DNA of 64,000 bases from an uncultured Alphaproteobacteria bacterium (GTDB taxonomy: Bacteria; Pseudomonadota; Alphaproteobacteria; Rhizobiales; Xanthobacteraceae). The notes beneath the pieces were generated by a model. It was given only the letters and a program-made list of their open reading frames with translations, did no database searches and had not been told where the DNA came from. Every line of letters begins with the position of its first letter. Positions within the stretch are counted from its first letter, which is position 1. Below are positions 22,428 through 62,669 of the stretch, piece after piece. The position numbers were made by a program, and so were the translations under genes. The stretch lies in the NCBI GenBank assembly GCA_963721025.1, contig CAVRHN010000014.1, forward strand, positions 87,835 through 151,834, written 5' to 3'.

Positions 22428-23882
22428 CTACACCAGCATCATCACTGGGTTCTCGATCAGTGCCTTAAACGCGCCGATCAATTGGGCGCCGAGCGCACCG
22501 TCGACTGAGCGGTGATCGCAGGACATGGTCACGCTCATGATCGGCGCTGCCTCGATCTTGCCGTTGCGTACCACCGCACGCTCTTCGCCGGTACCGACGG
22601 CGAGAATCGTCGACTGCGGCGGGTTGATCACGGCGGTGAAATCCTTGATGCCGTACATGCCGAGGTTGGAAACCGACGATGTGCCGCCCTGATATTCCTG
22701 CGGCTTGAGCTTTCTCGCCCGCGCCCGCGCCGCCAGATCCTTCATCTCGTTGGAGATCGCTGCCAGCGATTTCACTTCGGCGTTGCGGATGATCGGCGTG
22801 ATCAAGCCGGCCGGCAGCGCCACTGCGACGCCGATGTCGGAATGCTTGTGTTTGAGCAGACCGGCCTCGGTCCAGCTGACATTGGCGTCCGGCACGCGCT
22901 GCAAAGCAAGCGCCAAAGCCTTGATGACGAAGTCGTTGACCGAGAGCTTATAGGCCGGTTTGCCGTCCTTATCCTTCGGCGCCGCGACGTTGATCTCCTC
23001 GCGGGCGGCGACAAGCTTGCCGATGTCGCAGTCGACGGTGAGATAGAAATGCGGAATGGTCTGGATCGAGGCGGTGAGCCGCTGCGCGATGGTGCGGCGC
23101 ATATTATCGTGCGGGATGAGCTCGTAGCTGCCGTCTTCGTAGAGCGCGCGGATTTGCTGGTCCGACATCAACGGCGCAATCGCGGGAGCGCCCGCAGCCG
23201 CCGGCACTGCGTTCGGCGCCGCTCCCGGTGCGCGCAGGCCCTTGCCTTCTTTCGCCGCCGCCACATCGCGGGCAATCACGCGGCCATGCGGGCCAGAACC
23301 GGCGATGCGGGCGATCTCGATGCCGGCTTCCTTCGCCAGCCGCCGCGCCAGCGGCGAAGAGAAAATGCGGGCGGCGGCGTGGCCGTTGATCTGAGCCCCC
23401 TCACCCGCCGCGCGGATCTTGTCATCGGGCCGGCCACTTCGGGCCGGACCCGTTGACGCGGCGACCTCTCCCGCCGGGGGAGAGGTGGGTTTGGGACCCG
23501 GCGGCACGCTCGGCGTGACTCCCTCTCCCCTGGTGGGAGAGGGTTGGGGTGAGGGGGGTCCGGCGCTGGTCGGCTTCGCAGCTGGAGTCCCCTTCCCTGC
23601 TGCCGCTGCCGCTGCCGCTGCCGCTGCCTTCGGGTCCTCACCCTCTTGCACCAGCACGGCGATGAGCTGGTTGACCGGCACATCGTTGGTACCTTCCGGC
23701 ACCACGATTTTCGCCAGCACGCCGTCATCGACGGATTCGACCTCCATCGTCGCTTTATCGGTCTCGATCTCGGCGATCACGTCGCCGGTCTTGACCGCTT
23801 CGCCTTCCTTCTTGAGCCATTTGGCGAGGTTGCCCTTCTCCATCGTGGGCGACAGCGCCGGCATGAGGATGTTGATGGGCAT
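22428..23882 (-). CDS. pdhC: Pyruvate dehydrogenase E2 (dihydrolipoyllysine acetyltransferase)
   Basis: N-terminal lipoyl domain ([11 protein letters not shown]), PSBD (SSPLARRLAKEAGIEI) and catalytic DHRSVDG motif. 484 aa, with an unusually long linker. Confidence 0.93.
   Translation of the reverse strand: MPINILMPALSPTMEKGNLAKWLKKEGEAVKTGDVIAEIETDKATMEVESVDDGVLAKIVVPEGTNDVPVNQLIAVLVQEGEDPKAAAAAAAAAAGKGTPAAKPTSAGPPSPQPSPTRGEGVTPSVPPGPKPTSPPAGEVAASTGPARSGRPDDKIRAAGEGAQINGHAAARIFSSPLARRLAKEAGIEIARIAGSGPHGRVIARDVAAAKEGKGLRAPGAAPNAVPAAAGAPAIAPLMSDQQIRALYEDGSYELIPHDNMRRTIAQRLTASIQTIPHFYLTVDCDIGKLVAAREEINVAAPKDKDGKPAYKLSVNDFVIKALALALQRVPDANVSWTEAGLLKHKHSDIGVAVALPAGLITPIIRNAEVKSLAAISNEMKDLAARARARKLKPQEYQGGTSSVSNLGMYGIKDFTAVINPPQSTILAVGTGEERAVVRNGKIEAAPIMSVTMSCDHRSVDGALGAQLIGAFKALIENPVMMLV
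23396..23558. repeat. Two inverted copies of the hairpin/GGGTGAGGGG repeat unit, embedded in the pdhC linker coding region
   Basis: CCCCCTCACCC...CCTCTCCCGCCGGGGGAGAGG...CCCTCTCCCCTGGTGGGAGAGGGTTGGGGTGAGGGGGG. Same unit as the DUF559 flanks. Translated in the pdhC frame as PSPQPSPTRGEG...PPAGEV. Confidence 0.8.
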
Positions 23883-46644: not shown

Positions 46645-46770
46645 CTGCCCCGTCGTTGCGAGCGCGGCGCGCGGAAAGCCACGTCAAGCGCCGCATTGCG
46701 GCAGCGCGAAAGCCGAAATAAACTCTTGGCACAGAACTACAGAAATTATTTTCAGCACAGGGAAACGACA

Positions 46771-47067
46771 ATGCGCATGATGCTCAAGTTCACTCTTCCG
46801 GTCGAGAAGGGAAACGCAGCGATTGAAGACGGCGCGATCGCGCGAACTTTGGAATCGATCATGACCAAGCTCAAACCGGAAGCGGCCTATTTCGCGCCAT
46901 TAGACGGCAAACGCGGCGGCCTGATATTTTTTGATCTGGCCGATCCCTCGCAGATTCCCGAGGTGATCGAGCCGCTCTTCCTCAATCTCAATGCTGCAAC
47001 CGAGCTCACGCCGGTGATGAACGCCGACGATCTGCGCAAGGGACTCGGCAAAGCCGCACAGAAATAG
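46771..47067 (+). CDS. Small hypothetical protein (98 aa)
   Basis: ATG preceded by GGGAAA. Codon usage looks coding. No motif recognised. Confidence 0.5.
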   Translation: MRMMLKFTLPVEKGNAAIEDGAIARTLESIMTKLKPEAAYFAPLDGKRGGLIFFDLADPSQIPEVIEPLFLNLNAATELTPVMNADDLRKGLGKAAQK

Positions 47068-47097
47068 CGGCGTTCTCGCGGCGCGACCGCTTGTCTT

Positions 47098-47215
47098 CAC
47101 CTCCCTCTGGAGGGGGAGGTCGGCGCAGCAAAGGTGCGCCGGGAGGGGGTGAGCCAACTCACGATCTAATAGAAGATCACCCCACCCCGCGCCCTTCCGG
47201 GCGCGACCCTCCCCC
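47098..47215. repeat. Pair of hairpin + G-rich/C-rich repeat units (same class as the DUF559 flanks), with no gene between
   Basis: CCTCCCTCTGGAGGGGGAGG...GGAGGGGGTGAG ... TCACCCCACCCC-GCGCCCTTCCGGGCGC-GACCCTCCCCC. Confidence 0.7.
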
Positions 47216-47256
47216 AACCGAAGTCGGATGTTTCCGGCTTCGGTCACTCTTGAATT

Positions 47257-47284
47257 GCTGAACTCGGGAACACCCGAGTTCAGC
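47257..47284. repeat. Perfect 12-bp-stem hairpin
   Basis: GCTGAACTCGGG-AACA-CCCGAGTTCAGC. Confidence 0.8.
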
Positions 47285-47363
47285 GGGAAGGGTGAAGCGA
47301 ATGCGCAAGGAAAAGTCCATTTGTTCTCGCAACGCGATGCGCGCCCGAGGCATGCCGTACAAC

Positions 47364-47411
47364 CGCATGATCCCGAAAAGTGGCTACCGGTTTTCGCGCA
47401 AGATCATGCGC
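47364..47411. repeat. Palindromic element ..GCATGATC...GATCATGCGC (copy 2)
   Basis: Same arms and CCGGTTTTCG core as the copies at 28882 and 59187. Confidence 0.8.
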
Positions 47412-47513
47412 AAGAGACAGTCAACCACGTCGCTGCGCACCATCGCGTCACGCCTGAACCGGCGGTGGGACCGGTTTTGGGCTCGATCATGCTCGGCGAC
47501 AAATCCGTAGTCA

Positions 47514-47602
47514 GTAGCCCGGGTTGAGCAACGCGAAACCCGGGATGGACCTTTCAAGCCTTTCGATCGTCCCCGGGTGTCGCTTCGCTCCACCCGGGCT
47601 AC
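47514..47602. repeat. REP/MITE-like hairpin element GTAGCCCGG...CCGGGCTAC (copy 1)
   Basis: Left arm GTAGCCCGGGTTGAGCAACGCGAAACCCGGG is inverted against ...CCCCGGGTGTCGCTTCGCTCCACCCGGGCTAC. Confidence 0.8.
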
Positions 47603-48104
47603 AACCACAATAAAAGGAAGCAGAACGCCGGCAGGCGCATTTTTCCTTTGATGAGCCGCATCAGCGGATGCGGCGCGCACCTTAACGCGGCGCGCTCGCC
47701 TGACGGCGTTCCACCGCGGTACTTGCGGCCGCGAGCCAACGCCACCGCTCAGCTCCAGAACGCGCTTCCTGGGACGCGGCCTCCTCCAGGCGTTACCTGA
47801 AAGCGACCTATCCCAGTCCAGCGACAAAGTCGCAGACCGGTCATCGTGCCGGCCGGGCGTTTTCCCGTTAGCCGCCCGGGCGCGGAGGTGACGAGCCCCC
47901 GCCCGCGGGAACCGCTCCTGCCCCATCGGCCGATGTCACCCGGCCGACGTCCTTGCGTGGGCAAGATAAAGCACCGTAACATATACGGTGACTAATTGTC
48001 AAGGACCCGTCGCCAATCGCGCGACACATTCTTGTGATATACATTCCGCGGCGCGGCGCTGAACCCCGCGCATGGACATCGCGCAAAAACCCAAAGGAAT
48101 GCCG

Positions 48105-48680
48105 ATGATCAAGCCCAAGCTGCACCATGTCACGATGAAAACAACACGCCTGGACGAGATGATCGCGTGGTACGCGCTCGTCATCGGCGCCAAGGTCCAA
48201 TTCAGGGACAAGATGGCGGCCTGGACCACCAATGACGCGGCCAATCACCGCATCGCCTTTCTCGCCGTGCCGGGGCTGAGCGACGACGCCGACAAGGTCC
48301 GCCATAACGGCATGCACCACTGCGCCTTCGAATACGACAGCTTCGCCGATCTGATGGCGTCGTTCGACCGGCTGCGCCAGGCGGGCGTCGAGCCGGCGTT
48401 TTGTCTCGACCACGGCATGACGATTTCGCTCTACTACAAAGACCCCGAAGGCAACTTCGTCGAGTTGCAGAGCGACAGTTTTTCCGATTGGAACCTGTCC
48501 AGCGAATGGATGCGGACGTCGGCGGATTTTGCCCGAGATCCGATCGGCACCTTCTTCGATCCGGCGCGCGTCTACGACGCCTTCAAATCCGGCATCGATT
48601 TCAAGGCGCTGCAAAAGACGATCCGCGGCGGCGCTTATCTGCCCGACCCCATCCCCACCATCGGTTTGCCGACGCCGTGA
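48105..48680 (+). CDS. VOC-family protein (glyoxalase / extradiol dioxygenase fold)
   Basis: Pattern LHHVTMKT...H.AF.......HHCAFEY....... ...GMTISLYYKDPEGNFVELQ. ATG at 48105 has an AAGGA RBS; the upstream ATG at 48072 is the alternative. Confidence 0.78.
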   Translation: MIKPKLHHVTMKTTRLDEMIAWYALVIGAKVQFRDKMAAWTTNDAANHRIAFLAVPGLSDDADKVRHNGMHHCAFEYDSFADLMASFDRLRQAGVEPAFCLDHGMTISLYYKDPEGNFVELQSDSFSDWNLSSEWMRTSADFARDPIGTFFDPARVYDAFKSGIDFKALQKTIRGGAYLPDPIPTIGLPTP

Positions 48681-48707
48681 GGCCGGGCGATGGTGCCGGT
48701 GCCGTCG

Positions 48708-49118
48708 TTAGCCGGCCTCGCTCCACAGCTTCAAAGCGCAATGGCCGGCGATGCGCTTAAAATCATTGTCGGTTGATAGCATCGTCAGGCCATGGCGAAT
48801 GCAGAGCTGCGCCAGCAGAGCATCGATCGTGCCAATCTGGAGGCCGGCGCGACGACAAATGTTCCTCAACTCCGCCGCGCCGATGTGATCCTGGCGATCC
48901 GGCACAAGCAGCGGCACCGCGGAAAATCGATCCAAAATTTGCGCGCGGGCTCTCGGTCCTGAAAAACCTTGCAACAGCTCCTGGAGCACAAGGCCCGTGG
49001 TCAACAGCGTCTCCCCGGATTCGATCGCGCGGATCAACATCCGCAATGCCGCGGTTTGCGGCGGGGTGTCACGCCGCAGCGCCAGCGACCAAACACTGGT
49101 ATCGATGAACAAACTCAA
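48708..49118 (-). CDS. vapC: PIN-domain toxin VapC
   Basis: N-terminal FIDTSVW (first acidic residue) and C-terminal LSTDNDF. 136 aa. TTG start at 49118. Confidence 0.85.
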   Translation of the reverse strand: MSLFIDTSVWSLALRRDTPPQTAALRMLIRAIESGETLLTTGLVLQELLQGFSGPRARAQILDRFSAVPLLVPDRQDHIGAAELRNICRRAGLQIGTIDALLAQLCIRHGLTMLSTDNDFKRIAGHCALKLWSEAG

Positions 49119-49142
49119 TCGCGCGCCCGTTCCGCCTTATAG

Positions 49143-49316
49143 TCATAAGACAGAGTCCCACTCGAGCTTGCCCATCAGATCAAGCAGGCGCTTCTGCCGT
49201 CTGCGCGCGATAAATTCCTGCAGCGCTTTGGTGACGGCGGCCTTTTTGGTGCGCTCGCCGCTCACTTCCAGCGCACGGTCGATGAGTTCCGGATCGATCG
49301 ACAGGTTCGTTGCCAT
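49143..49316 (-). CDS. vapB: VapB-family antitoxin
   Basis: 57 aa. MATNLSIDPELIDRALEVSGERTKKAAVTKALQEFI pattern of the VapB / DUF2191-type antitoxins. Lies 24 nt upstream of vapC. Confidence 0.8.
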   Translation of the reverse strand: MATNLSIDPELIDRALEVSGERTKKAAVTKALQEFIARRRQKRLLDLMGKLEWDSVL

Positions 49317-49365
49317 GTGTGACTCTCCACACATCGTATGACACAAAGCACCAGGCCGAGCAATC

Positions 49366-49472
49366 GTCATTGCGAGGGGCCAACGGGTCCGGCCCGATGA
49401 CAGGCTCCGCGAAATCCGGGGAACGGCCGTGAGTTTGAACGCCGGATTTCGTTTTCACCCAATCCGGGCTAC
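49366..49472. repeat. Composite REP element (GTCATTGCGAGG...GATGACAGGCTCCGCGA + CCGGATTTCG...CCGGGCTAC)
   Basis: Shares CCAACGGGTCCGGCCC-GATGACAGGCTCCGCGA with 51449..51540, and the CCGGGCTAC-type arm with 47514, 49868 and 51541. Confidence 0.8.
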
Positions 49473-49530
49473 GCTTGCTCGGCGCCCTCACCGATCCAGG
49501 GGCGAACAAGTTCCACATGGGAGGTGCCAA

Positions 49531-49806
49531 ATGCCGTTATGCGTCGTTGTTCATCATCTCAAAGACTTCAATGAATGGATTACGCTGTTCACGGCCAACC
49601 CGCCGCCGCCGGTGGGGCGTTGGCGCCTGGCGCGCGGCATCGACGATCGCAACCGCGTTCACGTCGTCGGCGAAGTGAGCGCGGCGGAAGTCAAGGACGT
49701 AAAGGACTTCTTGAATTCGCCACGCATGCAGGACGTCTTTCGGCGCGTCAACGCGATGTCGACGGTGCCGCTCGAGTTCGTCTGGCTCGACGAGGTAAAA
49801 CCCTGA
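49531..49806 (+). CDS. Small hypothetical protein (91 aa)
   Basis: ATG preceded by GGGAGG. The ORF is bracketed by REP elements. No motif recognised. Confidence 0.45.
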   Translation: MPLCVVVHHLKDFNEWITLFTANPPPPVGRWRLARGIDDRNRVHVVGEVSAAEVKDVKDFLNSPRMQDVFRRVNAMSTVPLEFVWLDEVKP

Positions 49807-49867
49807 TCGTCGCGCACAACGCGCGCTGAAATTCGCGACGGCTGCAGGTTAGCGAGTAGATGAGCGA

Positions 49868-49948
49868 GTAGCCCGGATGGAGCGGCAGCGAAATCCGGGG
49901 GCGGCCGTGAGGTTGACCTCGGATTTCGTTTCACTCAATCAGGGCTAC
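49868..49948. repeat. REP/MITE-like hairpin element GTAGCCCGG...AGGGCTAC (copy 2)
   Basis: GTAGCCCGGATGGAGCGGCAGCGAAATCCGGG is inverted against CTCGGATTTCGTTTCACTCAATCAGGGCTAC. Confidence 0.8.
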
Positions 49949-50119
49949 GACCGCTCGATGAGAGCATTACCGGTTGTGACCATTTCGGGCATCAGCGGCT
50001 CAATTGATGCGGGTCAATAAAGCATTGGAGCGAATCAAATAGAAATCGAACTGGCCTCCGCGTGAGTCTGCACCTGGAAGCAAACGATTGCGTCAAGACA
50101 AACTGAAATCGCAACGGCC

Positions 50120-51337
50120 ATGAGAACTCTTTTTAAATCGTTTCGCAATGGATATGGGTTTGTCGCCGGCTGTTTCCTCTGTACTCTGCTCGCTGGGCTA
50201 TTCCTGCCTCTGACGGCCTCGGCCGGCGATCTGGAGAATGCAATCGCCAAATCGGCGGATCGTGAAGGATCGCCCGCACCATTCAGTCTTCCCAAACGCC
50301 CGCTGATCGAGAGCGCTCCGCGCTGGACTATCTCAGCCGAGGCCATTGTCTTGGGCCGTTTGGGCGGCGTCAATCAAACACTCGTTGAACGCGTGCCGGG
50401 CACCGTACCCTTCTTCACCTCACCACCCTACCCACCCTACAATACGTTCAACGCTCCTGGCGTCGAAGCGTTCAACAGCAACCAGTTTCGCCAGGGTTTT
50501 TCCGCAGGACCGAACATAAGCCTGACTTACCACGGCAATTCCGGCTACGGCGTGGAGTTGTCGTATTTCAACATCTTCGACCAAAGCGCCAGCAAAACTA
50601 TCGGTCCGGACAATCCGGCAGACTGGCTGGTGATGAAGGCTCCCGGCCTCTTTTGGCAAACTCAAGATTTTCCGTACCAAGGAATGGCATGGCGTGCCGC
50701 CACGAATCTTTATAACGTCGAGGCCAACGGGCGATTGGACATCACCAGCCGCGTGACGCTATTGGCCGGAGTCCGTTGGCTTCAGTTGAACGACGATCTT
50801 GAAGGGACGTTGACCCCCGCAGATCGCAGTCAGCCTACATGGAAGCAAAATCCTCTTTATCTTGACTCCAATCTTTTTCAGGTCGGCATGCTCGCCCCCG
50901 TTTTACCGGCAGTAAATTACCCGCCCTTCTGGAATACAAGCACGACGAACAATCTTTTTGGCGTCCAAATCGGCGCGGACGTAAAACTGCTGGAATTCGG
51001 CCGCTTATCGGTCAACGGCCTGATTAAGGCTGGGCTATTTGATAACTATGCCGAGCAGTCGACCGGAGTCAGCCTCAAGAAGCAGGTATTCCCATCGCAA
51101 GCCACGACCAACCACGCCGCCTTCGTCAGCGAAGCCGGCTTGCAGGTGAAATATCAGCTTCTCAACGGGCTGGCGCTCAAGGCAGGCTACGAAGTGCTAT
51201 GGCTCGACGGCGTTGCCTTGGCGCCTGGACAGATCCAGGAAACTTTGACTCTGGCGAATGTGCGCGCGCTTGGCGTCAACTGCGGGTCAAGCGTGCTGTT
51301 TCAAGGAGCCACAGCCGGGTTAGAGTATTCGTTTTAA
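50120..51337 (+). CDS. Putative outer-membrane beta-barrel protein
   Basis: Signal peptide ending ...LTASA. Alternating amphipathic strands, aromatic-rich. C-terminal ...AGLEYSF (terminal Phe). Visibly lower G+C than the core genes. Confidence 0.62.
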   Translation: MRTLFKSFRNGYGFVAGCFLCTLLAGLFLPLTASAGDLENAIAKSADREGSPAPFSLPKRPLIESAPRWTISAEAIVLGRLGGVNQTLVERVPGTVPFFTSPPYPPYNTFNAPGVEAFNSNQFRQGFSAGPNISLTYHGNSGYGVELSYFNIFDQSASKTIGPDNPADWLVMKAPGLFWQTQDFPYQGMAWRAATNLYNVEANGRLDITSRVTLLAGVRWLQLNDDLEGTLTPADRSQPTWKQNPLYLDSNLFQVGMLAPVLPAVNYPPFWNTSTTNNLFGVQIGADVKLLEFGRLSVNGLIKAGLFDNYAEQSTGVSLKKQVFPSQATTNHAAFVSEAGLQVKYQLLNGLALKAGYEVLWLDGVALAPGQIQETLTLANVRALGVNCGSSVLFQGATAGLEYSF

Positions 51338-51448
51338 GAAGCGGCCGGCGGGTCCGGCATGTCAGCTTTCGCACCGCTTTCGGGGGCAGAGCGGACGTTA
51401 TGCGCTTCCGATCAAGCACTCGAATTATGAGTGAGCAAGGAGCCGCAT

Positions 51449-51623
51449 GAGCCAACGGGTCCGGCCCGAAGTCGGGGCACTCCATCGCGCTCGCGCGATG
51501 GAGACCCCGGGCCGGCCGATGACAGGCTCCGCGACGAAGCAAGTGGCCGGGATTGAGCGGTAGCGAAATCCGGCAAGCAGCCGTGAAGCGGGTCCCGGAT
51601 GTCGCCCGGCCTATCCGGGGTAC
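51449..51623. repeat. Composite REP cluster with a nested palindromic insertion
   Basis: Same unit as 49366..49472, but with an extra ~50 nt after GGTCCGGCCC that carries the 10-bp-stem palindrome CTCCATCGCG-CTCG-CGCGATGGAG. Followed by a GGCCGGGATTGAGCGGTAGCGAAATCCGG...CCGGGGTAC arm pair. Confidence 0.75.
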
Positions 51624-51725
51624 GCTTGCTGAGGGGTGGCGGATTAAATCTTCGGCTGATCCGCCCGGCGCGCTGTGCTCAACCCTACTTGCACGCGCTG
51701 GCGGCGCGCGATGCCGCGGCGGCAA

Positions 51726-52661
51726 TCAGTCAGGCTTTTCGTCGGCATCGCTGATTGGCGGAATTTTGCTCATGATATATTTTGCTGCCGATTCTATCTC
51801 GGGGAACAACGTACTCGCGTTGATGTTGATACTGTCTAGCTCGTCCAGAAGCTTATTCTTTGCCGAGGCCGCGACCTTTGTTCGGACGATCTCAATTTCG
51901 AACCCGTTCGAGTCTTCAAGCGACGTCCGCAATCCGAAGATCAAAAATGCTCCCTGTTGGGCGAGAATGCGTCGATTAGTTTGCTTTGGCCGCACAGCGT
52001 GCACACTTTTCAAGTCTGATAGCTCGATCTTCGGGAGAAAGTAAGGTTTTTCAGCCTTTATAAAATGTAGAAGCCGTGTTCCGACCTCACTGTTGTTGAG
52101 AGCCGCCGAGTTCGCGAATCCTCGGATTTCGTCTCTTTCGCCACCTGTCAAATTCGACAAATTGGCAACGCAACTCACAGTATCGCTATCGAAATACCTA
52201 ATTCTTGATTTGCGCAGCTTGAATCTTATTAGTTCCCCATCTTTTTCCTCATCCTTCAAACAAGCAAAATAAAGGCCTACGAGTGGATTATAGGTTAGGT
52301 CAAGCAACCGTGTGGGTAGGCCATAGTGCTGCATTCTGACAAGCTGCTCGAACGACGTTTTGTCCTCCCGGAACTCATTAGGTTGAATTGCGATCAACTC
52401 GCGCAGAATGTTTCTTTCCAAGCGACGATATTCCTTCTTACGGAAGATTGAAGGCATCAAAGTGTGGGATCTATCGGGATGTCCGCGATATAGGTTGACA
52501 TGCCGACCGCCCGGCTGCGACTTGCCGAGCAAATCGAAGAGGTCGCTTAAACTCCGAATACCGGCACCAGCTTTCTTAATCGTAACGGGCACAGCTGCGT
52601 TCCTTATTATCGTTCGATCGGCAATGCCTAAACTAAGTCCGCATGGGGCGGCGACATACAA
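51726..52661 (-). CDS. FRG-domain protein
   Basis: Motifs LYRGHPDRSHTLMPSIFR, QHYGLPTRLLDLTYNPLVGLYFA and NRRILAQQGAFLIFG match the FRG (PF08867-type) pattern from memory. Three 60-nt lines in the gene hand-count to 37-47% G+C. The first codon at 52661 is TTG; a GTG at 52592 with an AAGGA RBS is the alternative start. Confidence 0.78.
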   Translation of the reverse strand: MYVAAPCGLSLGIADRTIIRNAAVPVTIKKAGAGIRSLSDLFDLLGKSQPGGRHVNLYRGHPDRSHTLMPSIFRKKEYRRLERNILRELIAIQPNEFREDKTSFEQLVRMQHYGLPTRLLDLTYNPLVGLYFACLKDEEKDGELIRFKLRKSRIRYFDSDTVSCVANLSNLTGGERDEIRGFANSAALNNSEVGTRLLHFIKAEKPYFLPKIELSDLKSVHAVRPKQTNRRILAQQGAFLIFGLRTSLEDSNGFEIEIVRTKVAASAKNKLLDELDSININASTLFPEIESAAKYIMSKIPPISDADEKPD

Positions 52662-52779
52662 AATTCCGTTCGGAAGAATATCCCCTCAACATCGCTCCGG
52701 TTATCCCAGGCTGCGCTTGCAACTCTTCAAACGATGTGAGTGCGAATTAGCATACACCAATCGCGGATCACAGTTGGCA

Positions 52780-53793
52780 TCAGCGGAATTGACTGAATGT
52801 TTTTAGCAATTTCATGGTGGAGTCATACTCAAGCTTGTCGCCCTCGAAGTCACATCGGTACAACCCCTGCAGGTTCGACGGCAGCGTTACACCGCGCTCT
52901 ACCAACAAGATGACCTTCTTGCCATATAAGGCCATGGCCGCTCCGATCTCGATGAGCACATTGTCATTCAGCTTGGTTAGCTCATTGCCATCCTTATCGA
53001 GATATTTTCCTTCAGCGCCCACATGGATCACGCCCGCGCTACAAGAACGCATGTCCTCGAACACCTTCTCTGGCACCGGAATGGCCGTTGCTTCGCGCTC
53101 AACAGAAACGACTGGGTCAAAACTGCCGAATGTCAACAACTCTTTGATTTGGGCGACGATGGCCTTCTGCTTTCCATGGGAAATGAAGACGCGATTGGCC
53201 TTCGCAGCCAGCGCCACCATAGCCTGAGGAGTTATCGCTGAGGGTGCGGGCGCTGGCTTCGCTACTTCGTCCGCGCCACCGGCCTCTGCCGCATCGAGCG
53301 TACCTTGTTCTGGAAATTCCGGGGTTGCCACCGGCGCAGGAACTCCAGGGGAGTCTAAGTTTATGAACGGACCTGTAGGCGTCTCGCGAATAATACCAGC
53401 ATAGCGCCCGTTCTCCTTGATGATCTCGAGCGCGCCGTCTACGCGATCTGCGGGCAAACTCATAGCTTTAAGAACATTTCCTGCAATTAGGTCGTTGGGA
53501 AGTTTGGCCCGCCGATATTTTTCAAAGAAGTCATGCAGAAGCCTCGGTTTCAATATTGCTTCGCGTCGCGCCACGAGGTCTTCCCCCTCCGCTTCCGGCG
53601 CCACCAACTTTCGGCCGAGCGGAGTAAGCGTCATCCTATTAGCATTCCACCCTCCGTCGATAAGGCCGTAGGCTATAGCTGCGCCGGTTAAGGCCTGCCA
53701 TCCGCTGCTCGTAGGACTAATACCGAGCGCGAGAGCTACATCAGGTGGAGACCCGCCATCGCCTGCGAAATTGTCGACTATGGCAGAGTGGCC
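52780..53793 (-). pseudogene. 3' portion (about 336 codons) of an IS-interrupted gene: putative winged-helix-like region + Pro/Ala linker + TIR-like (Cap12/PycTIR, PF10137-type) C-domain
   Basis: The C-terminal ~130 aa (RVFISHGKQ...VIHVGAEG...DNVLIEIGAAMALYGKKVILLVERGVTLPSNLQGLY) fit the predicted nucleotide-binding TIR-like domain pattern. The track ORF 52780..53814 takes its first 7 codons, including a GTG start, from the IS terminal repeat. Confidence 0.7.
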
Positions 53794-53818
53794 TGCACCC
53801 GGTTCGGTTGACACCCGC

Positions 53819-54685
53819 CTAAGCTAAACCCGACTGCATCTCGAACTCCATGGGGCTTCTGTAGCCGATTGTCGAGTGCCGGCGTTTAGCATTGTAGAAG
53901 CACTCGATGTAATCGAACACGTCAGCCTTGGCTTCATCACGCGTCCGATAGGTCTTGCGTGCCGTACGCTCGGTCTTCAGCGACGAGAAGAAGCTCTCCA
54001 TTGCCGCGTTGTCCCAGACATTGCCCGAGCGGCTCATCGAGCAGACGATGCCATGATCGGCCATCAGCTTCTGGAACTGCTCGCTGGTGTATTGGCTGCC
54101 GCGATCGGAGTGATGCAGCAGCGCATCGGGCTTGCCCCGGCGCCAGATCGCCATCACCAGGGCGTCGGTGACGAGCTGTGCCGTCATCTGTGCGCTCATC
54201 GACCAGCCGACCACGCGGCGTGAGAACAGATCGATGACGACCGCCACATAGAGCCAACCTTCCGCGGTCCACACATAGGTGAAGTCAGCGATCCATTTGC
54301 GGTTGGCAGCAGCTGCCGCGAAGCTGCGGTCGAGTACGTTGGGAGCGACGGCGGCGACCTGCCGCTCACCCAGATCGGGCGGCAGCCGACGCCGTCGCGG
54401 ACGGGCTTTGAGAGCCTGTAAGCGCATCAATCGCTCGATCCGATGCAGACCACACGAGAAGCCTTCCGCCAGCAGGTCGTGCCACACCCGCCTGGCGCCA
54501 TAGGTTCGATCGCTGGCAAGGAAGCTTGTCCGGACCTTGGCGCCCAGCTCTTCATCGCTACGGCTGCGCCGACTGCGCGGTCGTGTCAGCCAGGCATAGA
54601 ACCCACCCCGCGAGACACCGAGCGCCCCGCACAACCAATCCGCCGGCCAGATCCCCCGGTGCTTCGCAATGAAACCGAACTTCAC
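53819..54685 (-). CDS. IS3-family transposase OrfB (DDE integrase core), normally made as an OrfAB frameshift fusion
   Basis: rve-type core (WIADFTYVW..., HSDRGSQYTS, N-terminal HTH_21-like region). Reading frame is -1 relative to orfA. Confidence 0.9.
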   Translation of the reverse strand: MKFGFIAKHRGIWPADWLCGALGVSRGGFYAWLTRPRSRRSRSDEELGAKVRTSFLASDRTYGARRVWHDLLAEGFSCGLHRIERLMRLQALKARPRRRRLPPDLGERQVAAVAPNVLDRSFAAAAANRKWIADFTYVWTAEGWLYVAVVIDLFSRRVVGWSMSAQMTAQLVTDALVMAIWRRGKPDALLHHSDRGSQYTSEQFQKLMADHGIVCSMSRSGNVWDNAAMESFFSSLKTERTARKTYRTRDEAKADVFDYIECFYNAKRRHSTIGYRSPMEFEMQSGLA

Positions 54686-54972
54686 GTCGATTCCTTCGCG
54701 AAGTAGGCCGCGGCTTTTTTTAGGATGTCGCGTTCGGCCTTCAGCTTGATCACCTCGCGCGTGAGCCGCGCGATCTCCAGCTGCTCGGGCTTCATCTGAC
54801 CCTGGCCGGGGAAGGCATGCTGCGGATCGTCCGCAAATGCCTTCACCCAGTTGCGCAGCTGCGTCGGATGCACCTTCAGGTCTTCGGATGCCTGCGCATA
54901 CGACACCCCGCGATCCCTGATCAGCCGCACCGCCTCAAGCTTGAACTCCCGCGTAAACCTTCGTCTCTCCAT
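54682..54972 (-). CDS. IS3-family transposase OrfA (HTH)
   Basis: RRFTREFKLEAVRLI...LRNWVK...leucine-zipper-like...ILKKAAAYFAKE is typical of IS3-family OrfA. Confidence 0.9.
   Translation of the reverse strand: MERRRFTREFKLEAVRLIRDRGVSYAQASEDLKVHPTQLRNWVKAFADDPQHAFPGQGQMKPEQLEIARLTREVIKLKAERDILKKAAAYFAKEST
54715..54721 (-). promoter_or_regulatory. Programmed -1 ribosomal frameshift site (A AAA AAA)
   Basis: Run of 7 A on the coding strand within ...ATC CTA AAA AAA GCC..., near the end of orfA. A -1 slip reads into the orfB frame (KKSRGLLREGIDVKFGF...). Confidence 0.75.
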
Positions 54973-55028
54973 GACTTACCTCCGGTTCCATAAAAACACC
55001 TAACTCGGTGTCTTCGGAACCAGGTGCA

Positions 55029-55161
55029 GGCCAGAGGCGATTTTTTGCGCCTGCTGAAGTGAGGTGAGAGGGAAGTCAGATTGCTTATAGTAGGTTCGCT
55101 TGCCAGAGCTAGATTTCTTGCTGGCCTTATCTTTGAAAGCTCCCCGGGGTTTCTTCGCCAT
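55029..55161 (-). pseudogene. 5' portion (44 codons) of the IS-interrupted TIR-like gene
   Basis: ATG at 55161 with upstream AAGAGGA. Encodes MAKKPRGAFKDKASKKSSSGKRTYYKQSDFPLTSLQQAQKIASG, then runs into the IS. It is in frame with 52780..53793 once the IS plus one GGCC copy (1,239 nt = 3 x 413) is removed. Confidence 0.72.
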
Positions 55162-55182
55162 CCTTCCATCCTCTTTAGATGC

Positions 55183-55211
55183 AGAATATGAGCAACAGTT
55201 GGATCGGTCAA
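55183..55211 (-). promoter_or_regulatory. Sigma70-like promoter for the interrupted gene (-35 TTGACC, 17-nt spacer, -10 TATTCT)
   Basis: On the minus strand: TTGACC (55211..55206), N17, TATTCT (55188..55183). Lies about 20 nt upstream of the RBS and ATG at 55161. Confidence 0.4.
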
Positions 55212-55285
55212 CGACTGGTTGTATGCGCGATCGGAGCCTGCTTATGAAGGCCATGGAGGTGAACGATTTCGCTTCGTTGCGCAGT

Positions 55286-55321
55286 CTGGATTGCTTCGTC
55301 GCTGCGCTCCTCGCAATGACG
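55286..55321. repeat. REP element CTGGATTGCTTCGTCGCTGCGCTCCTCGCAATGACG
   Basis: Short element of the ...CCTCGCAATGAC class. The reverse complement of its end recurs at 49366. Sits between the island and the mfd stop. Confidence 0.7.
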
Positions 55322-55325
55322 AGAG

Positions 55326-58300
55326 CTACGCCGCCCTGGCCGCCTTCTCCGCGATCCCCGCCAGCGTGCGTAAAATGCCGGCGGCGCCTTTGAGGCGGGC
55401 GGAAGGCGTCTCCCATTCGTCGAAGAACACGACTTTCATGTCGGGGCGGACGCGGGCGCCCTCGGGGTGCTTGCCGATATAGGCGATGAGGCCTTCCGGG
55501 TTGGCGAAGATGTTGTCGCGGAAGGAGAGCACCGCGCCCTTCGGCCCGACCTCGATCCGCTCGACATTGGCGCGGCGGCACAACGATTTGATGGAAACCA
55601 CCTGCAGCAGATACTCGACCTCCTGCGGCAGCGGGCCGAAGCGGTCGACCAGCTCGGCGGCAAAGGCCTCGATGTCGCGCTCGTCCTCGATTTCCGCAAG
55701 CCGCCGGTAGAGCGCGAGCCGCACCGGCAGGTCGGCGACGTATTCCTCCGGGATCAGCACCGGCGTGCCGATGGTGATTTGCGGCGACCATTTGTCGGCG
55801 ACCGGGCCGCTGATGCCGGCTTTGAGACTCAAAACCGCCTCTTCCAGCATCTGCTGGTAAAGCTCGTAGCCGACTTCCTTGATGTGGCCGGACTGCTCCT
55901 CGCCGAGCAAATTGCCGGCGCCGCGGATGTCGAGATCGTGCGAGGCGAGCTGGAAGCCGGCGCCGAGCGTGTCGAGCGATTGCAGCACCTTGAGGCGTCG
56001 CTCCGCCTGCGGCGTGATCCGTCTATTGGCCGGCAGCGTCAAGAGCGCATAGGCGCGGAGCTTGGCGCGGCCGACGCGGCCGCGCAGCTGATAGATCTGC
56101 GAAAGCCCGAACATGTCGGCGTGATGCACGATCAGCGTGTTGGCGGTCGGGATGTCGAGGCCGGATTCGACGATCGAGGTCGAAAGCAGCACGTTGAATT
56201 TGCCGTCATAAAACGCCGCCATCACGTCCTCGAGCACGGTCGACGGCATCTGCCCGTGGGCGACGGCGACCTTCACCTCGGGCACGTTCTTGTCAAGGAA
56301 CGCCTTGGTCTCGGCCAGATCTTCGATGCGCGGACAGACATAGAAGGATTGGCCGCCGCGATAGCGCTCGCGTAACAGCGCCTCGCGCACCACGATCGGA
56401 TCGAACGGCGCGACGAAGGTGCGCACCGCCAGCCGATCGACCGGCGGCGTGGCGATGATCGACATTTCGCGCACGCCGGACAGCGCCAATTGCAGCGTGC
56501 GCGGGATCGGCGTCGCCGTCAGCGTCAAGACGTGCACCTCGGCGCGCAGCTGTTTCAGCTTCTCCTTGTGGCCGACGCCGAAATGCTGCTCCTCGTCGAC
56601 GACGATGAGGCCGAGGTCCTTGAACTTGATGGTCTTGCCGAGGAGCGCGTGGGTGCCGATGACGATATCGATTTGGCCGTCGGCGAGGCCCTTTTTCACC
56701 CGGGCGAGCTCGGCTGCGGAGACCAGACGGGATGCCTGCGCGATATTGACCGGATAGCCGCGCAGCCGGTCGGAAAAAGTCTTGAAGTGCTGGCGCGCCA
56801 GCAGCGTCGTCGGCACCACAACCGCGACCTGCTTGCCGTTCATCGCGGCGATGAAGGCGGCGCGCAGCGCCACTTCGGTCTTGCCGAAACCGACGTCGCC
56901 GCAAATGAGCCGGTCCATCGGCTTGCCGGAAGCGAGATCGGCGAGCACGGCGGCGATGGTGGCCTGCTGGTCATCGGTCTCCTCATAGGGAAAGCCGGCG
57001 CAGAACTCGTCGTAGAGGCCAGAGTCGACGGCGAGCCGCGGCGCCTCGCGCAATTGCCGCTCGGCGGCGATCTTGATCAGCTCGCCCGCCATCTCGCGGA
57101 TGCGGTTCTTCATCCGCGCCTTGCGCGACTGCCAGGCCGTCGAGCCGAGCCGGTCGAGCTCGACACCGGCTTCCTCGGAGCCGTAGCGCGAGAGAAGCTC
57201 GATGTTCTCGACCGGCAGGAACAGCTTGTCGCCGCCGGCGTAATGGATTTCCAGACAGTCGTGCGGCGCGCCGGCGGCCTCGATGGCGCGCAAGCCGACG
57301 AAGCGGCCGATACCGTGATCGACGTGGACGACGACATCGCCGGCGGACAGGCTCGTCACCTCGGCGATGAAGTTCTCCGCCCGCTTCGATTGCCGGCGCG
57401 GGCGAACGAGCCGCTCGCCCAAAATGTCTTCTTCGGTGATCAGCGTGACATCGGCGGTCGCGAAACCGGCGTCGAGGCCGACCACCGCGAGCGCGGTCTC
57501 GGCGCGCGAGAGCGCCAGCGCCTGCGGCCATGACGCGACCGGGGTAAGATTGAACAAGCCATGCTCGGCGAGGACGTGCGCCATCCTTTCGCGCGAGCCT
57601 TCGCTCCACAGCGCGATGACGACGCGCTTGCCGGCTGCTTGCAGCGTTTCGACGTGCTCCCTCACCGCCTCGAAGACGTTGCTGCCGGGCTCGCTTCTTT
57701 CGGCGGCGAAGTTGTGGCCGGCGCGGGCGCCGATCTCGATCGCATCTGCATTGCCCTCCGGCGCAGCGAACGGCGACAGCCGCGCCAGCGCGGATTTTTC
57801 CAAGCACTCACGCCATTCCGCTTCGGGCAGATAGAGTCGGTCGGGCGGCAGCGGCTTATAGGGCGCGCCACTTCCCCCTTGGCCCGCTTGATCGAGCGCG
57901 TCCTTGCGCGCCTGATAATAATCGGCGATCTGCGCCAGCCGCTCATGGGCCGCTTCTTCCGCTAGCGGCTCGATCGCGATCGGAGTCGCCTCGATATAAT
58001 CAAACAGCGTGTCGAGCTGCGGGTGAAACAGCGGCAGCCAATGCTCGACGCCGGCGGTGCGGCGGCCGTCGCTCACCGCCTCATAGAGCATGTCGTCGGG
58101 GCCAGCGGCGCCGAACGCCGCGACGTAGCCGGTGCGAAACAGCCGGATCGTTTCCGGCGTGAGCTGAAACTCCGCCATGGGAACGAGTTCGAGCGTGCGC
58201 AGCTCGTCGGTGGTGCGCTGGGTTTCGGGATCGAAGCGGCGGATCGATTCCAGCGTGTCGCCGAAAAAATCGAGCCGCACCGGCGCGTCCATGCCGGGCG

Positions 58301-59348: not shown

Positions 59349-61451
59349 ATGCGTCCGTCGGTTCTCAACCCGCTTTTTGCTCCGCTGTCGGCACTGTCCG
59401 GAATCGGGCCCCGACTGGAACAGCTGTTCGGGCGCCTCTTGGCGCGCGAGGGCGAACGGCCGCGCGTCGTCGATCTGCTGTTTCATCTGCCGATCGGCTT
59501 CGTCGATCGGCGCAACCAGCCCAAGCTCTCCGCCGTCGAGCCCGATACGGTGGTGACCGTCGCCGTCACCATCGATCGCCACCGGCCGCCGCCGCCGAAC
59601 CGCCCGCGCGCGCCCTACAGCATCGACGCTAGCGACGAGACCAACACGCTCACCATCACCTATTTCAATGCGCGCCGCGACTATCTGCAAAAGCTCTTTC
59701 CGGTCGGCGAGAAACGCTACGTGTCGGGCACCGCGACGCTGTATGACGGCCATCTGCAGATGCTGCATCCCGACCGCGTGGTCGACGAAGCCGGCTTTGC
59801 CAACCTGCCGCTGATCGATCCGGTCTACCCGCTCACCGAAGGGCTCCACCCCAACCAGTTGCGCAAGGCGCTCGATCTCGCGCTCGATCGCATCCCGGCG
59901 CTGCCGGAATGGCAGGACGCGGCCTGGCTCAAGCGCAACGCTTTTCCGGGCTTTGCCGACGCCTTGCGCAGCCTGCATCGTCCGGCGTCGCCTGACGACC
60001 TCAAGCCGGAAGGTCCGGCCTGGTCGCGGCTCGCTTATGACGAATTGCTCGCCGGTCAGCTGGCGCTGGCGCTTCTGCGCGCTCACCAACGCATACGGGC
60101 CGGCCGCGGCAGCGCCGCCGAGGGACGCCTACGCCAGCGCATCATCGCCGCGCTGCCCTATACGCTCACGCCGTCACAGCAACGCGCGGTCGCCGGCATC
60201 GTCGCCGATCTGGCGCAGCCCAACCGCATGCTGCGGCTTCTCCACGGCGACGTCGGTTCCGGCAAGACGCTCGTTGCGCTACTCGCCGCCGCGACCGTGA
60301 TCGAGGCCGGCCGCCAGGCGGCGTTCATGGCGCCAACCGAAATCCTCGCGCGCCAGCATTTTGCGACAATCGCGCCGCTCGCCGCCGCCGCCGATATCCG
60401 CCTCGCCATTCTGACCGGCCGCGAGCGCGGCCGCGAACGCGCGGAGATTCTCTCCGCGCTGGGCACCGGCGACATCGACCTCATGGTCGGCACGCACGCG
60501 CTCTTTCAGGAAGACGTGGCATTCCACGATCTTGCATTGGCCATCGTCGACGAGCAGCACCGCTTCGGCGTGCACCAGCGGTTGGCGCTGGCGCGCAAGG
60601 GCGAGGCGGTCGACCTTCTGGTGCTGACGGCGACGCCGATCCCGCGCACATTGGTGCTGACTTATTTCGGCGACATGGATGTCTCGGAGCTGCGCGAAAA
60701 GCCGGCCGGACGGCAGAAGATCGACACCCGCGCCGTGCCGCTGGAGCGGCTCGGCGAAGTCATCGAGGCGGTGCAGCGCGCGCTCGCGGACGGCCGGCGC
60801 GTCTATTGGGTGTGCCCGCTGGTCGAGGAATCCGAAAGCATCGATCTCGCCGCGGCCGAAGAGCGCCACACGGCGCTGAGAAAGCGCTTCGGCGACACCG
60901 TCGAGCTCATTCATGGCCGCATGCGCGGTCCCGAAAAGGACCGCGCCATGGCCCGCTTTGCCGAAGGCGCAGCGCGCATCCTGGTCGCGACCACGGTGAT
61001 CGAGGTCGGCGTCGACGTGCCCGAAGCCAGCGTCATGGTCATCGAGCACGCCGAGCGTTTCGGGCTGGCGCAGCTGCATCAATTGCGCGGGCGCGTCGGT
61101 CGCGGCGCCGCGCGTTCGACCTGTCTCTTGCTCTACAAAGCCCCGCTTGGCGAAACGGCCAAGGCGCGGCTGGCCATCTTGCGCGAGACCGACGATGGCT
61201 TTCGCATCGCGGAGGAGGATTTACGCTTGCGCGGCGAAGGCGACGTGCTCGGCACCCGGCAGAGCGGCATGCCCGGTTTTCGCCTCGCCCGCATCGAGGT
61301 CCATGGCAAGCTGCTCAGCGCCGCGCGCGACGATGCCGCGCTGGTGCTGGCGCGCGACCCGAAGCTCGGCTCGCCGCGCGGCGCCGCGCTACGCCACCTT
61401 CTTTATCTGTTCGCGCGCGACGAAGCGATCAGACTGCTGGGCGCCGGCTGA
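59349..61451 (+). CDS. recG: ATP-dependent DNA helicase RecG
   Basis: Wedge domain plus SF2 motifs (GDVGSGKT, DEQHRFG, TATPIPRTL). 700 aa. Confidence 0.95.
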   Translation: MRPSVLNPLFAPLSALSGIGPRLEQLFGRLLAREGERPRVVDLLFHLPIGFVDRRNQPKLSAVEPDTVVTVAVTIDRHRPPPPNRPRAPYSIDASDETNTLTITYFNARRDYLQKLFPVGEKRYVSGTATLYDGHLQMLHPDRVVDEAGFANLPLIDPVYPLTEGLHPNQLRKALDLALDRIPALPEWQDAAWLKRNAFPGFADALRSLHRPASPDDLKPEGPAWSRLAYDELLAGQLALALLRAHQRIRAGRGSAAEGRLRQRIIAALPYTLTPSQQRAVAGIVADLAQPNRMLRLLHGDVGSGKTLVALLAAATVIEAGRQAAFMAPTEILARQHFATIAPLAAAADIRLAILTGRERGRERAEILSALGTGDIDLMVGTHALFQEDVAFHDLALAIVDEQHRFGVHQRLALARKGEAVDLLVLTATPIPRTLVLTYFGDMDVSELREKPAGRQKIDTRAVPLERLGEVIEAVQRALADGRRVYWVCPLVEESESIDLAAAEERHTALRKRFGDTVELIHGRMRGPEKDRAMARFAEGAARILVATTVIEVGVDVPEASVMVIEHAERFGLAQLHQLRGRVGRGAARSTCLLLYKAPLGETAKARLAILRETDDGFRIAEEDLRLRGEGDVLGTRQSGMPGFRLARIEVHGKLLSAARDDAALVLARDPKLGSPRGAALRHLLYLFARDEAIRLLGAG

Positions 61452-61484: not shown

Positions 61485-61826
61485 TCAGAATTTACCCGCC
61501 CGCACCATCGCCTGCCAAAACTCGTTCCAGTCGGCGTAGGTTTGTTGGCCTTCGGCGGTCTTCACGGTCACCGTTTTGTCAGGATTCACGCGATAATAAA
61601 CGCCCTTATGGATCTGCGGAAAATCTGGGTCGGCGGAAACCTTTTGTTGGGCCGCATTTCTTTGCGGGGGCATCGCGAACAAAAATGCCCACGCGACCAG
61701 CGGTGAGCCTATGAGGGAGATAAAGAACCAAGCAGCCGACGAGCGTCCTCGCGCGGCTGCGGCAACAGCGATCGCTCCGGACAGAGCAATCCAGAAGTAG
61801 AAGGCGACAAGATATCCTAATTGCAT
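61485..61826 (-). CDS. Small hypothetical membrane protein
   Basis: Two N-terminal hydrophobic helices and a soluble C-terminal tail. 113 aa. No motif recognised. Confidence 0.5.
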   Translation of the reverse strand: MQLGYLVAFYFWIALSGAIAVAAAARGRSSAAWFFISLIGSPLVAWAFLFAMPPQRNAAQQKVSADPDFPQIHKGVYYRVNPDKTVTVKTAEGQQTYADWNEFWQAMVRAGKF

Positions 61827-61919
61827 GAGCCCCCACTACTCTCGCAGCAGCGCCCAACCAGAAAGTCGATTGAAAACACAACGTACGGGGGCCATGGACC
61901 TCGCCCGCCAGCCAATAGC

Positions 61920-62669
61920 CTACTTCGCCGGGCTGGGCGCCGCCTGGCGCGCCAGCTGTGCGGCGCGGGCGGTTTCGGCAAGCGCGGCAAGCTTGTTCTG
62001 CGGGTCGCCGCCGGGCTGAATGATGCCGGCGGAGATCAACAGCGTCATCGCCTGCTCGACGGTGATGTCGAGATCGATCACGTCGCGGCGCGGCACGTAG
62101 AAGAAGAAGCCCGTGGTCGGGTTCGGCGTGCACGGCAGGAACGCCGAGACGTGCTCGGTCTGCGGCAGATGTTTGGCAATCTCCGCGGTCGGCGGTTGGG
62201 TCAGAAACACCAGCGACCACATGCCCGGCGCCGGAAACTCGACCAGGCCGACGTGCCGGAAGCTCGAGTCCGAGCTGGAAAACAGCGTCTGGAAGATCTG
62301 CTTGGTGGTGCGGTAGATCGGCCGCACGATCGGCATGCGGTTCAACAGGCTTTCGCCGAAATCGACGAGCTTGCTGCCGACCAAGTTGGCGGTGAGAAAG
62401 CCGAGCAGCGTCAGCGCCGCGAGCACGATGATCAGGCCGAGACCCGGAATATTGACCGGCAGATAGGTCTCGGGGCGGTACGCCACCGGAAAAATCGGCC
62501 GCACCAGATTGTCGACCCAGGTGACGAACCACCAGATCAGCCACAACGTCACCGCCACCGGTCCGGCAACGATCAGCCCGGTCAAAAAGTAATTGCGGAG
62601 ACGGCTGACGATCCCGGCCTTGGCCGCGCCGCTGGATAGTGCCGCGCTGTGATCGTTGTCATCGATCAT
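61920..62669 (-). CDS. DUF502-domain membrane protein
   Basis: N-terminal LRNYFLTGLIVAGPVAVTLWLIWW pattern and overall layout are typical of DUF502. Start placed at the internal ATG (MIDDNDH). Confidence 0.78.
   Translation of the reverse strand: MIDDNDHSAALSSGAAKAGIVSRLRNYFLTGLIVAGPVAVTLWLIWWFVTWVDNLVRPIFPVAYRPETYLPVNIPGLGLIIVLAALTLLGFLTANLVGSKLVDFGESLLNRMPIVRPIYRTTKQIFQTLFSSSDSSFRHVGLVEFPAPGMWSLVFLTQPPTAEIAKHLPQTEHVSAFLPCTPNPTTGFFFYVPRRDVIDLDITVEQAMTLLISAGIIQPGGDPQNKLAALAETARAAQLARQAAPSPAK

Follow-up and report, generated by a model that had tools for sequence, protein, structure and literature searches.

Two neighbouring minus-strand genes, at positions 51,726-55,161 of the window (the whole stretch of DNA analysed, 64,000 nt), encode a protein with winged-helix-like N-terminal segments and a C-terminal TIR-like domain, and a protein with an FRG domain. 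These are probably two independent, horizontally acquired single-gene units that lie side by side by chance in a variable islet next to mfd. A preliminary description had joined them into a sensor-effector pair, but a survey of gene neighbourhoods recovered that pairing in none of 55 loci of the TIR-like gene and none of 103 loci of the FRG gene, and the proposed two-gene cassette is not supported. Because the two families never co-occur in the surveyed loci, they are treated here as separate single-gene candidate anti-phage units. Any novelty rests with the N-terminal domain of the TIR-like protein (the N-domain), which belongs to no described family, and with its modular partners rather than with the pair.

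Genomic independence of the two genes

The order on the minus strand is mfd (55326 to ~58900), then the winged-helix/TIR-like gene, interrupted here by an insertion sequence (IS), then the FRG gene; by synteny and Pfam matches, mfd directly abuts the TIR-like gene. The features of the focal block are as follows (aa, amino acids).

51726-52592, minus strand: FRG gene, GTG start, 288 aa (a TTG at 52661 would give 311 aa)
52593-52779, minus strand: spacer between the FRG and TIR-like genes, 187 nt
52780-53788, minus strand: 3' part of the interrupted winged-helix/TIR-like gene, from the last base of codon 42 through codons 43-377 to the stop, with one GAG copy
52843-53193, minus strand: predicted Cap12/PycTIR-type TIR domain (PF10137), aa 241-357
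52948-52950, minus strand: GAG codon of Glu322, within NVLIEIG
53344-53788, minus strand: downstream part of the predicted tandem winged-helix N-domain, aa 43-190, from the AlphaFold model and weak Foldseek matches to winged helix-turn-helix (wHTH) proteins
53786-53788 and 55034-55036: perfect 3-bp target duplication GAG flanking the IS
53789-55033, minus strand: IS3-family insertion sequence, 1245 bp, borders from homologue alignment and IS-free orthologues
53789-53815 and 55007-55033: terminal inverted repeats of the IS, 27 nt, with TG...CA ends
53819-54685, minus strand: IS orfB, rve domain (rve/DDE)
54682-54972, minus strand: IS orfA, HTH_Tnp_1 domain
near 54721, minus strand: slippery site A7G of the IS
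55034-55161, minus strand: 5' part of the interrupted winged-helix/TIR-like gene, which encodes the basic tail (aa 1-21) and the first stretch of the N-domain up to codon 42, with the second GAG copy
55183-55211, minus strand: TTGACC-17-TATTCT, a promoter-like site that lies upstream of the TIR-like gene

The two genes are co-directional, as first described, but the spacer is more likely 187 nt than the 118 nt originally given, a consequence of placing the FRG start at the GTG of position 52592. This start is favoured because almost all FRG homologues are 288 aa long and the motif AAGGAA precedes the GTG. The lower G+C content of both genes relative to the core was confirmed, at 48% for FRG and 55% for the TIR-like gene compared with 64% for the window (62% for the IS), while G+C at third codon positions (GC3) is 0.54-0.72 over 46.7-53.8 kb and 0.81-0.85 in core genes. 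The view that the genes have a foreign composition and the flavour of conflict systems is supported; the FRG protein belongs to the defence candidate PDC-S15, and the closest relatives of the TIR domain are Cap12/TIR-STING proteins.

The survey of the TIR-like family covered 55 loci in species-representative genomes, at identities of 26-89% (most of them 50-89%, with a few partial matches), from hosts in the Alpha-, Beta- and Gammaproteobacteria, Acidobacteriota, Nitrospirota, Verrucomicrobiota, Planctomycetota, Armatimonadota, and Chloroflexota. The FRG survey covered 103 loci, 23 genomic or metagenomic and 80 viral. No FRG gene was detected in the 55 TIR-like loci by tblastn at E <= 1e-3, with chance-level fragments only at E up to 10, and the FRG hidden Markov model (HMM) had no match over the same loci at E <= 1. 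Reciprocally, tblastn and the TIR HMM placed a TIR-like gene in 0/23 of the genomic or metagenomic FRG loci and 0/80 of the viral ones. All-against-all clustering of flanking open reading frames (ORFs) revealed no conserved neighbour of the TIR-like gene, and the same approach revealed none for FRG across 20 genomic or metagenomic and 80 viral loci. The TIR-like family is patchily distributed and its gene always stands alone.

The closest relatives of the window locus are L001, from an alphaproteobacterial metagenome-assembled genome (MAG), and L022, from a Xanthobacteraceae MAG. Both have mfd followed by an IS-free TIR-like gene and no FRG. In L001 the TIR-like gene is succeeded by an unrelated membrane ORF of 222 aa, in L022 by an AlkB-like gene. 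As these relatives keep mfd and the TIR-like gene but lack FRG, the latter was added to a variable spot in a strain-specific way, and cargo appears to be swapped at the site downstream of the TIR-like gene. The membrane ORF of L001 (9325-9993), at the position of FRG, had no match in Pfam, PHROG, or PADLOC.

It is thus very improbable that the two genes form one defence system, with FRG as a sensor of infection or a modulator of a TIR-like NADase. Such a system would account for their adjacency and shared direction, their low G+C content, and the prediction that both products act on NAD+, and co-transcription would be possible, as no terminator-like site was found in the 187-nt spacer. Nevertheless, the absence of co-occurrence in all surveyed loci and the syntenic relatives that carry the TIR-like gene without FRG argue against it, as do the difference in G+C content between the genes (48% and 55%), the PADLOC classification of FRG as a single-gene candidate, and the presence of a sensor-like N-terminal domain within the TIR-like protein itself. 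A pair would have given FRG, a family without a tested function, a defined partner; dropping the idea saves experimental effort.

Additional observations speak to the mobility and maintenance of the TIR-like gene. It stays at ~54% G+C in hosts that range from 53-69% and falls below its flanks in 41 of 44 loci. Purifying selection on the gene is strong: the ratio of nonsynonymous to synonymous substitution (dN/dS) is 0.08 relative to L001, with synonymous sites saturated beyond that comparison. Searches of viral contigs for the TIR-like and short N-domain forms gave a single match, on a Nitrobacter contig, with none for P0497 and P0490.

The interrupted winged-helix/TIR-like protein

The inference that an IS splits the upstream gene was correct, while the estimated length of ~380 aa gave way to 377 aa, reconstructed with a GAG duplication. 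The element has all of the features of the IS3 family: an orfA/orfB arrangement, a slippery site, inverted repeats with TG...CA ends, and a 3-bp target duplication. It is apparently intact and single-copy in the window, and the absence of any other lesion in the TIR-like gene suggests that it inserted recently. Removing it together with the GAG duplication restores an in-frame protein of the same length as its closest relatives, and the repaired junction is confirmed empirically by L001 and L022, whose IS-free orthologues align collinearly over it. A repair based on a 4-bp GGCC duplication (380 aa) was ruled out because it adds three spurious residues relative to 40 aligned homologues, and the 3-bp GAG borders were therefore adopted. 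The IS breaks the gene behind codon 42, inside the first N-domain helix, so that the window copy is almost certainly inactive. Public annotation records only a 284-aa remnant (P0026).

Homologues of the TIR-like gene are often frameshifted or truncated, as in L160 (6001-7303; Sphingopyxis sp. PET50), L163 (6001-7160), L164 (5001-6117), L022, and L037, and annotation divides the frameshifted ones into an 'N-domain protein' and a small PF10137 ORF. The interpretation of L160, L163, and L164 as 'split' two-gene operons of N-domain and TIR was rejected, as inspection of three frames shows them to be frameshifted fusions. Such copies could be real pseudogenes of a costly gene or the product of long-read assembly errors; the occurrence of several inactivated copies, by the IS here and by frameshifts in L160, L163, and L164, fits a gene that is costly or toxic. 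In the complete Sphingopyxis genome (L160), the frameshifted gene sits beside a PD-T7-4/DUF4145 gene and a Fic gene.

The repaired protein is composed of a basic tail, a tandem winged-helix N-domain, a disordered Pro/Ala linker, and a C-terminal TIR domain, an architecture that agrees with the one originally read from the sequence. Nine of the first 22 residues are Lys or Arg, in line with the Lys-rich tail described, and the tail is basic yet variable among homologues. In the full-length AlphaFold model (pLDDT 81), a disordered stretch of ~40 residues (aa 195-232) connects two domains that are both predicted well, and the winged-helix-like segments and the Pro/Ala linker are visible. Modelled alone, the N-domain reaches a pLDDT of 94 and a pTM of 0.88 and consists of two winged-helix-like units. 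Foldseek returned no significant structural relative of the N-domain in the PDB (best E 0.03) or BFVD, a profile search of the PDB gave nothing significant, and no model matched it in Pfam or NCBIfam (E up to 1) or in PADLOC. The weak Foldseek matches are all winged-helix proteins, namely GntR, DtxR, MarR, and IclR regulators, SelB, and the recognition domain of FokI.

The assignment of the C-terminal region to a PF10137-type TIR domain was upheld by Pfam, with a match of 66.7 bits (cut-off 24.7; E 2.4e-18) that spans model positions 1-118 of 119. The profile of the TIR-like family matches Cap12/TIR-STING (7un8) and PycTIR (8jsj) in the PDB. In the AlphaFold model the domain has a pLDDT of about 80-90, and its best Foldseek matches are the fibre-forming TIR-STING structures 7un8 and 9lmq (E 2e-6), followed at lower ranks by nucleoside 2-deoxyribosyltransferase and DNPH1 and then by the TIR domains of SARM1 and SPARTA; the CMP N-glycosidase BcmB is also matched. 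The conserved catalytic-type Glu, flagged earlier as something to check, is present: Glu322 is invariant in 38 sequences, and the profile aligns it with the Glu of NVVFEFG in 7un8, a residue that we take to be catalytic in SfSTING. Judged from its profile matches and predicted structure, the domain is a member of the PF10137 family with a TIR/flavodoxin-like fold and a putative catalytic Glu.

Partners of the N-domain, the FRG protein, and known systems

The N-domain occurs in 795 clusters at 50% identity. Among the best 150 of these, about a third carry a TIR domain, three carry a Ser/Thr kinase (P0251, P0305, and P0366), and further ones terminate in a short conserved tail. In P0251, the kinase fusion that was tested, the kinase part matches the PADLOC models of PD-T4-6 (E 4e-51), a Ser/Thr kinase reportedly validated as a defence by Vassallo and colleagues in 2022. 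Those models align to residues ~236-526 of P0251, the kinase, and not to its N-domain, and other N-domain proteins had no PADLOC match. The window protein has a TIR domain in place of the kinase.

The short-tailed type ends in '...INIEIHIAAD...IF.NM..Y' and is followed by an overlapping gene of 175-192 aa in the three of three contexts inspected. Short-tailed genes with an overlapping downstream gene are located at:

L161, 6001-7417
L162, 1807-3223
L168, 1344-2631
L169, 1204-2485

The partner in Micromonospora matches pP_pnuc_1 (E 1e-12), and the partner in two metagenome contigs has a weak DUF4145-like match, with integrases close by. L168 and L169 carry integrase genes, and L168 also carries a primase and a methylase. 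The short-tailed gene and its overlapping partner are possibly a two-gene relative of the TIR fusion. Because the same N-domain is joined to a TIR domain, a kinase, and a nuclease-like partner, these arrangements suggest a sensor with swappable effectors; the sharing of one recognition-type domain among several kinds of effector is usual in conflict systems. We tentatively propose, at somewhat less than even confidence, that the N-domain defines a widespread and so far undescribed type of sensor in an immune family of modular build, spread as a one- or two-gene unit with a fused TIR NADase, a fused PD-T4-6-like kinase, or a short coupling tail and a translationally coupled pP_pnuc_1/DUF4145-like partner in at least eight bacterial phyla. 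If validated, it would constitute a new sensor type for bacterial TIR immunity and offer a simple one-protein model for the activation of a TIR NADase through a winged-helix module that binds a ligand.

The known systems closest to the TIR domain are CBASS, through Cap12 (TIR-STING), and Pycsar, through PycTIR. These effectors belong to the same Pfam family, provide the best PDB matches (7un8, 9lmq, and 8jsj), and have a Glu in the equivalent motif. By analogy, the window domain likely has the same activity, that of an NADase switched on by clustering. The window protein differs in that it has no STING or SAVED domain, Pfam finds no cyclic nucleoside monophosphate (cNMP)-binding domain in it, its sensor-like domain is N-terminal and of the tandem winged-helix type, and no CD-NTase or cyclase is nearby. 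The lack of such a partner, as first described, held for the 17 further ORFs scanned at 36-64 kb of the window. The protein falls outside CBASS, with 16.8 bits against a cut-off of 450 for the Cap12 equivalog, a winged-helix N-domain, and no CD-NTase in the scans. It likewise falls outside Pycsar, as the PADLOC PycTIR model matches at E 0.012 and no cyclase family occurs among the neighbours.

Single-gene systems offer a closer comparison. PDC-S35 is likewise a single gene with a C-terminal PF10137-type domain, and five of its models match the C-terminal part of the window protein (E 3e-9 to 3e-7). The TIR part alone aligns (e.g., 109-237 of 264 positions, 28-35 bits), the N-terminal half being unrelated; because the alignment is limited to the TIR part, the protein is not a full-length member of PDC-S35. 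The PADLOC comparison suggested in the preliminary description thus gave a full-length match for FRG, to PDC-S15, but no full-length model for the TIR-like protein. A recognition region and a TIR effector are combined in one polypeptide in the single-protein defences TIR-V, -VI, and -IX of E. coli (PMC11350192), and also in Bacillus SpbK, a single-protein TIR defence that is a weak PDB match of the TIR-like family profile. The window protein differs from these in both its TIR subfamily and its recognition domain; they recognise phage proteins such as the portal, while a nucleic-acid-type ligand is guessed for the window protein.

The FRG assignment was substantiated by the PF08867 match (73.5 bits against a cut-off of 25, E 2.7e-20). 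The protein matches the PADLOC model of PDC-S15 (PDLC04933) over 7-280 of 286 positions (E 1e-101) and PHROG 4962 (E 6e-43), and on these matches it is classed as an ordinary full-length member of the single-gene candidate PDC-S15. It stands alone with variable neighbours, as the 'S' class implies. A sequence relative in the PDB was not found. Residues R36, G37, H38, P47, H89, T94, R95, D98, Q212, Q213, and G214 are invariant, and dN/dS is 0.05 relative to the 86%-identical homologue in L056. The Aravind group has placed FRG in the ADP-ribosyltransferase (ART) superfamily as a predicted NADase-type effector (PMC9503650). The PDCs, or 'phage defence candidates', number 145; they are untested and come from a guilt-by-embedding approach (bioRxiv 10.1101/2024.01.29.577857). 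A search of the literature for functional tests of FRG, PDC-S15, and PDC-S35 found none, returning only annotation lists, the Aravind-group prediction, and the PADLOC candidate description. As a stand-alone gene product, the window protein offers a clean case for the NADase activity predicted from an ART fold.

The FRG family is common on prophage contigs, with 137 matches on IMG/VR contigs, and some prophage FRG genes adjoin P2-type portal and terminase genes. Rousset and colleagues are said to have described, in 2022, the P2-type portal/terminase position as a hotspot for defence cargo. The viral homologues (L080-L159, from IMG/VR) are often ~440 aa long with an extra N-terminal ~170 aa, and several adjoin P2-like portal, terminase, or tail-sheath genes. 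Many prophage versions of PDC-S15/PHROG 4962 differ from the window protein in this extension, which has no counterpart in the latter.

Mode of action, alternatives, and the surrounding islet

As two separate units, the genes may act as follows. The first, the 377-aa protein inactivated here by the IS, would be a self-contained sensor-effector fusion whose winged-helix module, aided by the basic tail, would bind nucleic acid or another infection-associated ligand. Ligand binding would cluster the protein and allow its TIR domains to pair, as in the ligand-induced filaments of TIR-STING, and the paired domains would hydrolyse NAD+ so that the infected cell stops growing. The second, the stand-alone FRG, would be another NAD+-directed effector acting alone.

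Several points weigh against this interpretation. Ligand binding is a guess from the fold class, as the N-domain is without a significant structural relative, and the TIR fold also resembles nucleoside 2-deoxyribosyltransferase and DNPH1. The TIR-like family is 65-90% identical across phyla, which is atypical of fast-evolving phage sensors, and its neighbours are mostly ordinary metabolic genes. Enrichment in defence islands is weak because only a handful of the 148 nearest neighbours match defence models (DRT, MADS, and NERD-UvrD). Many of the truncated copies originate from long-read MAGs and are possibly sequencing errors. Further, the defence role of either family is that of a candidate, and PDCs are likewise untested candidates.

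These same observations lend some weight to a physiological role, in which the TIR-like protein would be a DNA-bound regulator or a nucleotide-processing enzyme, N-glycosidase- or deoxyribosyltransferase-like, of the TIR/nucleoside 2-deoxyribosyltransferase/DNPH1 fold class. This non-immune explanation is unlikely but keeps an appreciable probability because conservation is high (dN/dS 0.08 and very high identity across phyla), the neighbours are mostly housekeeping genes, and few of them are defence genes. The Foldseek matches to nucleoside 2-deoxyribosyltransferase, DNPH1, and BcmB point in the same direction, as does the fact that the weak matches of the N-domain are all transcription-factor-type wHTH proteins. 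However, a physiological gene fits poorly with the patchy distribution, a composition kept whatever the host, the lack of a conserved genomic context, and the recurrent disruption of copies. Its closest relatives in sequence and structure are the immune TIRs Cap12/TIR-STING and PycTIR, and the N-domain also partners a PD-T4-6-like kinase and nuclease-like proteins in mobile-element contexts, both of which favour the sensor-effector fusion.

Less likely still is an orphan effector of the CBASS/Pycsar type, the N-domain of which would recognise a signal, either a nucleotide second messenger or one derived from the host, made by an enzyme encoded elsewhere. Cyclic nucleotides activate Cap12 and PycTIR, the PF10137 TIRs that have been characterised, and a preprint reports a stand-alone TIR-SAVED effector that responds to a host signal (bioRxiv 10.1101/2025.06.19.660554). 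This explanation is ranked below a non-immune role because the fold of the N-domain is the wrong one, a tandem winged helix and not a STING, SAVED, or cNMP-binding domain, and because no cyclase or CD-NTase was found among the top 25 neighbour families of 52 loci or among the 17 window ORFs. The score of 16.8 bits for the NCBIfam Cap12 equivalog, against a cut-off of 450, also argues against it. On balance, a self-contained fusion beside an unrelated FRG gene is preferred.

The surroundings of the two genes had been described as a defence islet. Its components are present, namely vapBC (vapC at 48708-49118 and vapB at 49143-49370), the IS, and REP-like (repetitive extragenic palindromic-like) repeats, but enrichment of defence genes around TIR-like loci is weak. 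The block of atypical GC3 spans 46650-55200. Besides FRG, the TIR-like gene, and vapBC, it holds a glyoxalase-family gene, a gene for a BBP7-type porin, and two small ORFs that have no assignment. Between the DsbA-like gene and the TIR-like gene of L001, different genes take its place. The core gene recG lies at 59349-61451 on the plus strand, and a low-GC3 ORF at 61606-62544 was rejected as a gene, being a spurious Arg-rich frame. Promoter-like sites in the region, including the one upstream of the TIR-like gene, number no more than expected by chance (2 found, 2.0 expected). REP-like repeats of 18-20 nt are shared by the intergenic regions at 51451-51534, 49379-49412, and 23436-23455, and also at 55270-55330, and the motif TCGTCATTGCGAGGAGCGCAGCGACGAAGCAATCCAG is located upstream of the TIR-like gene.

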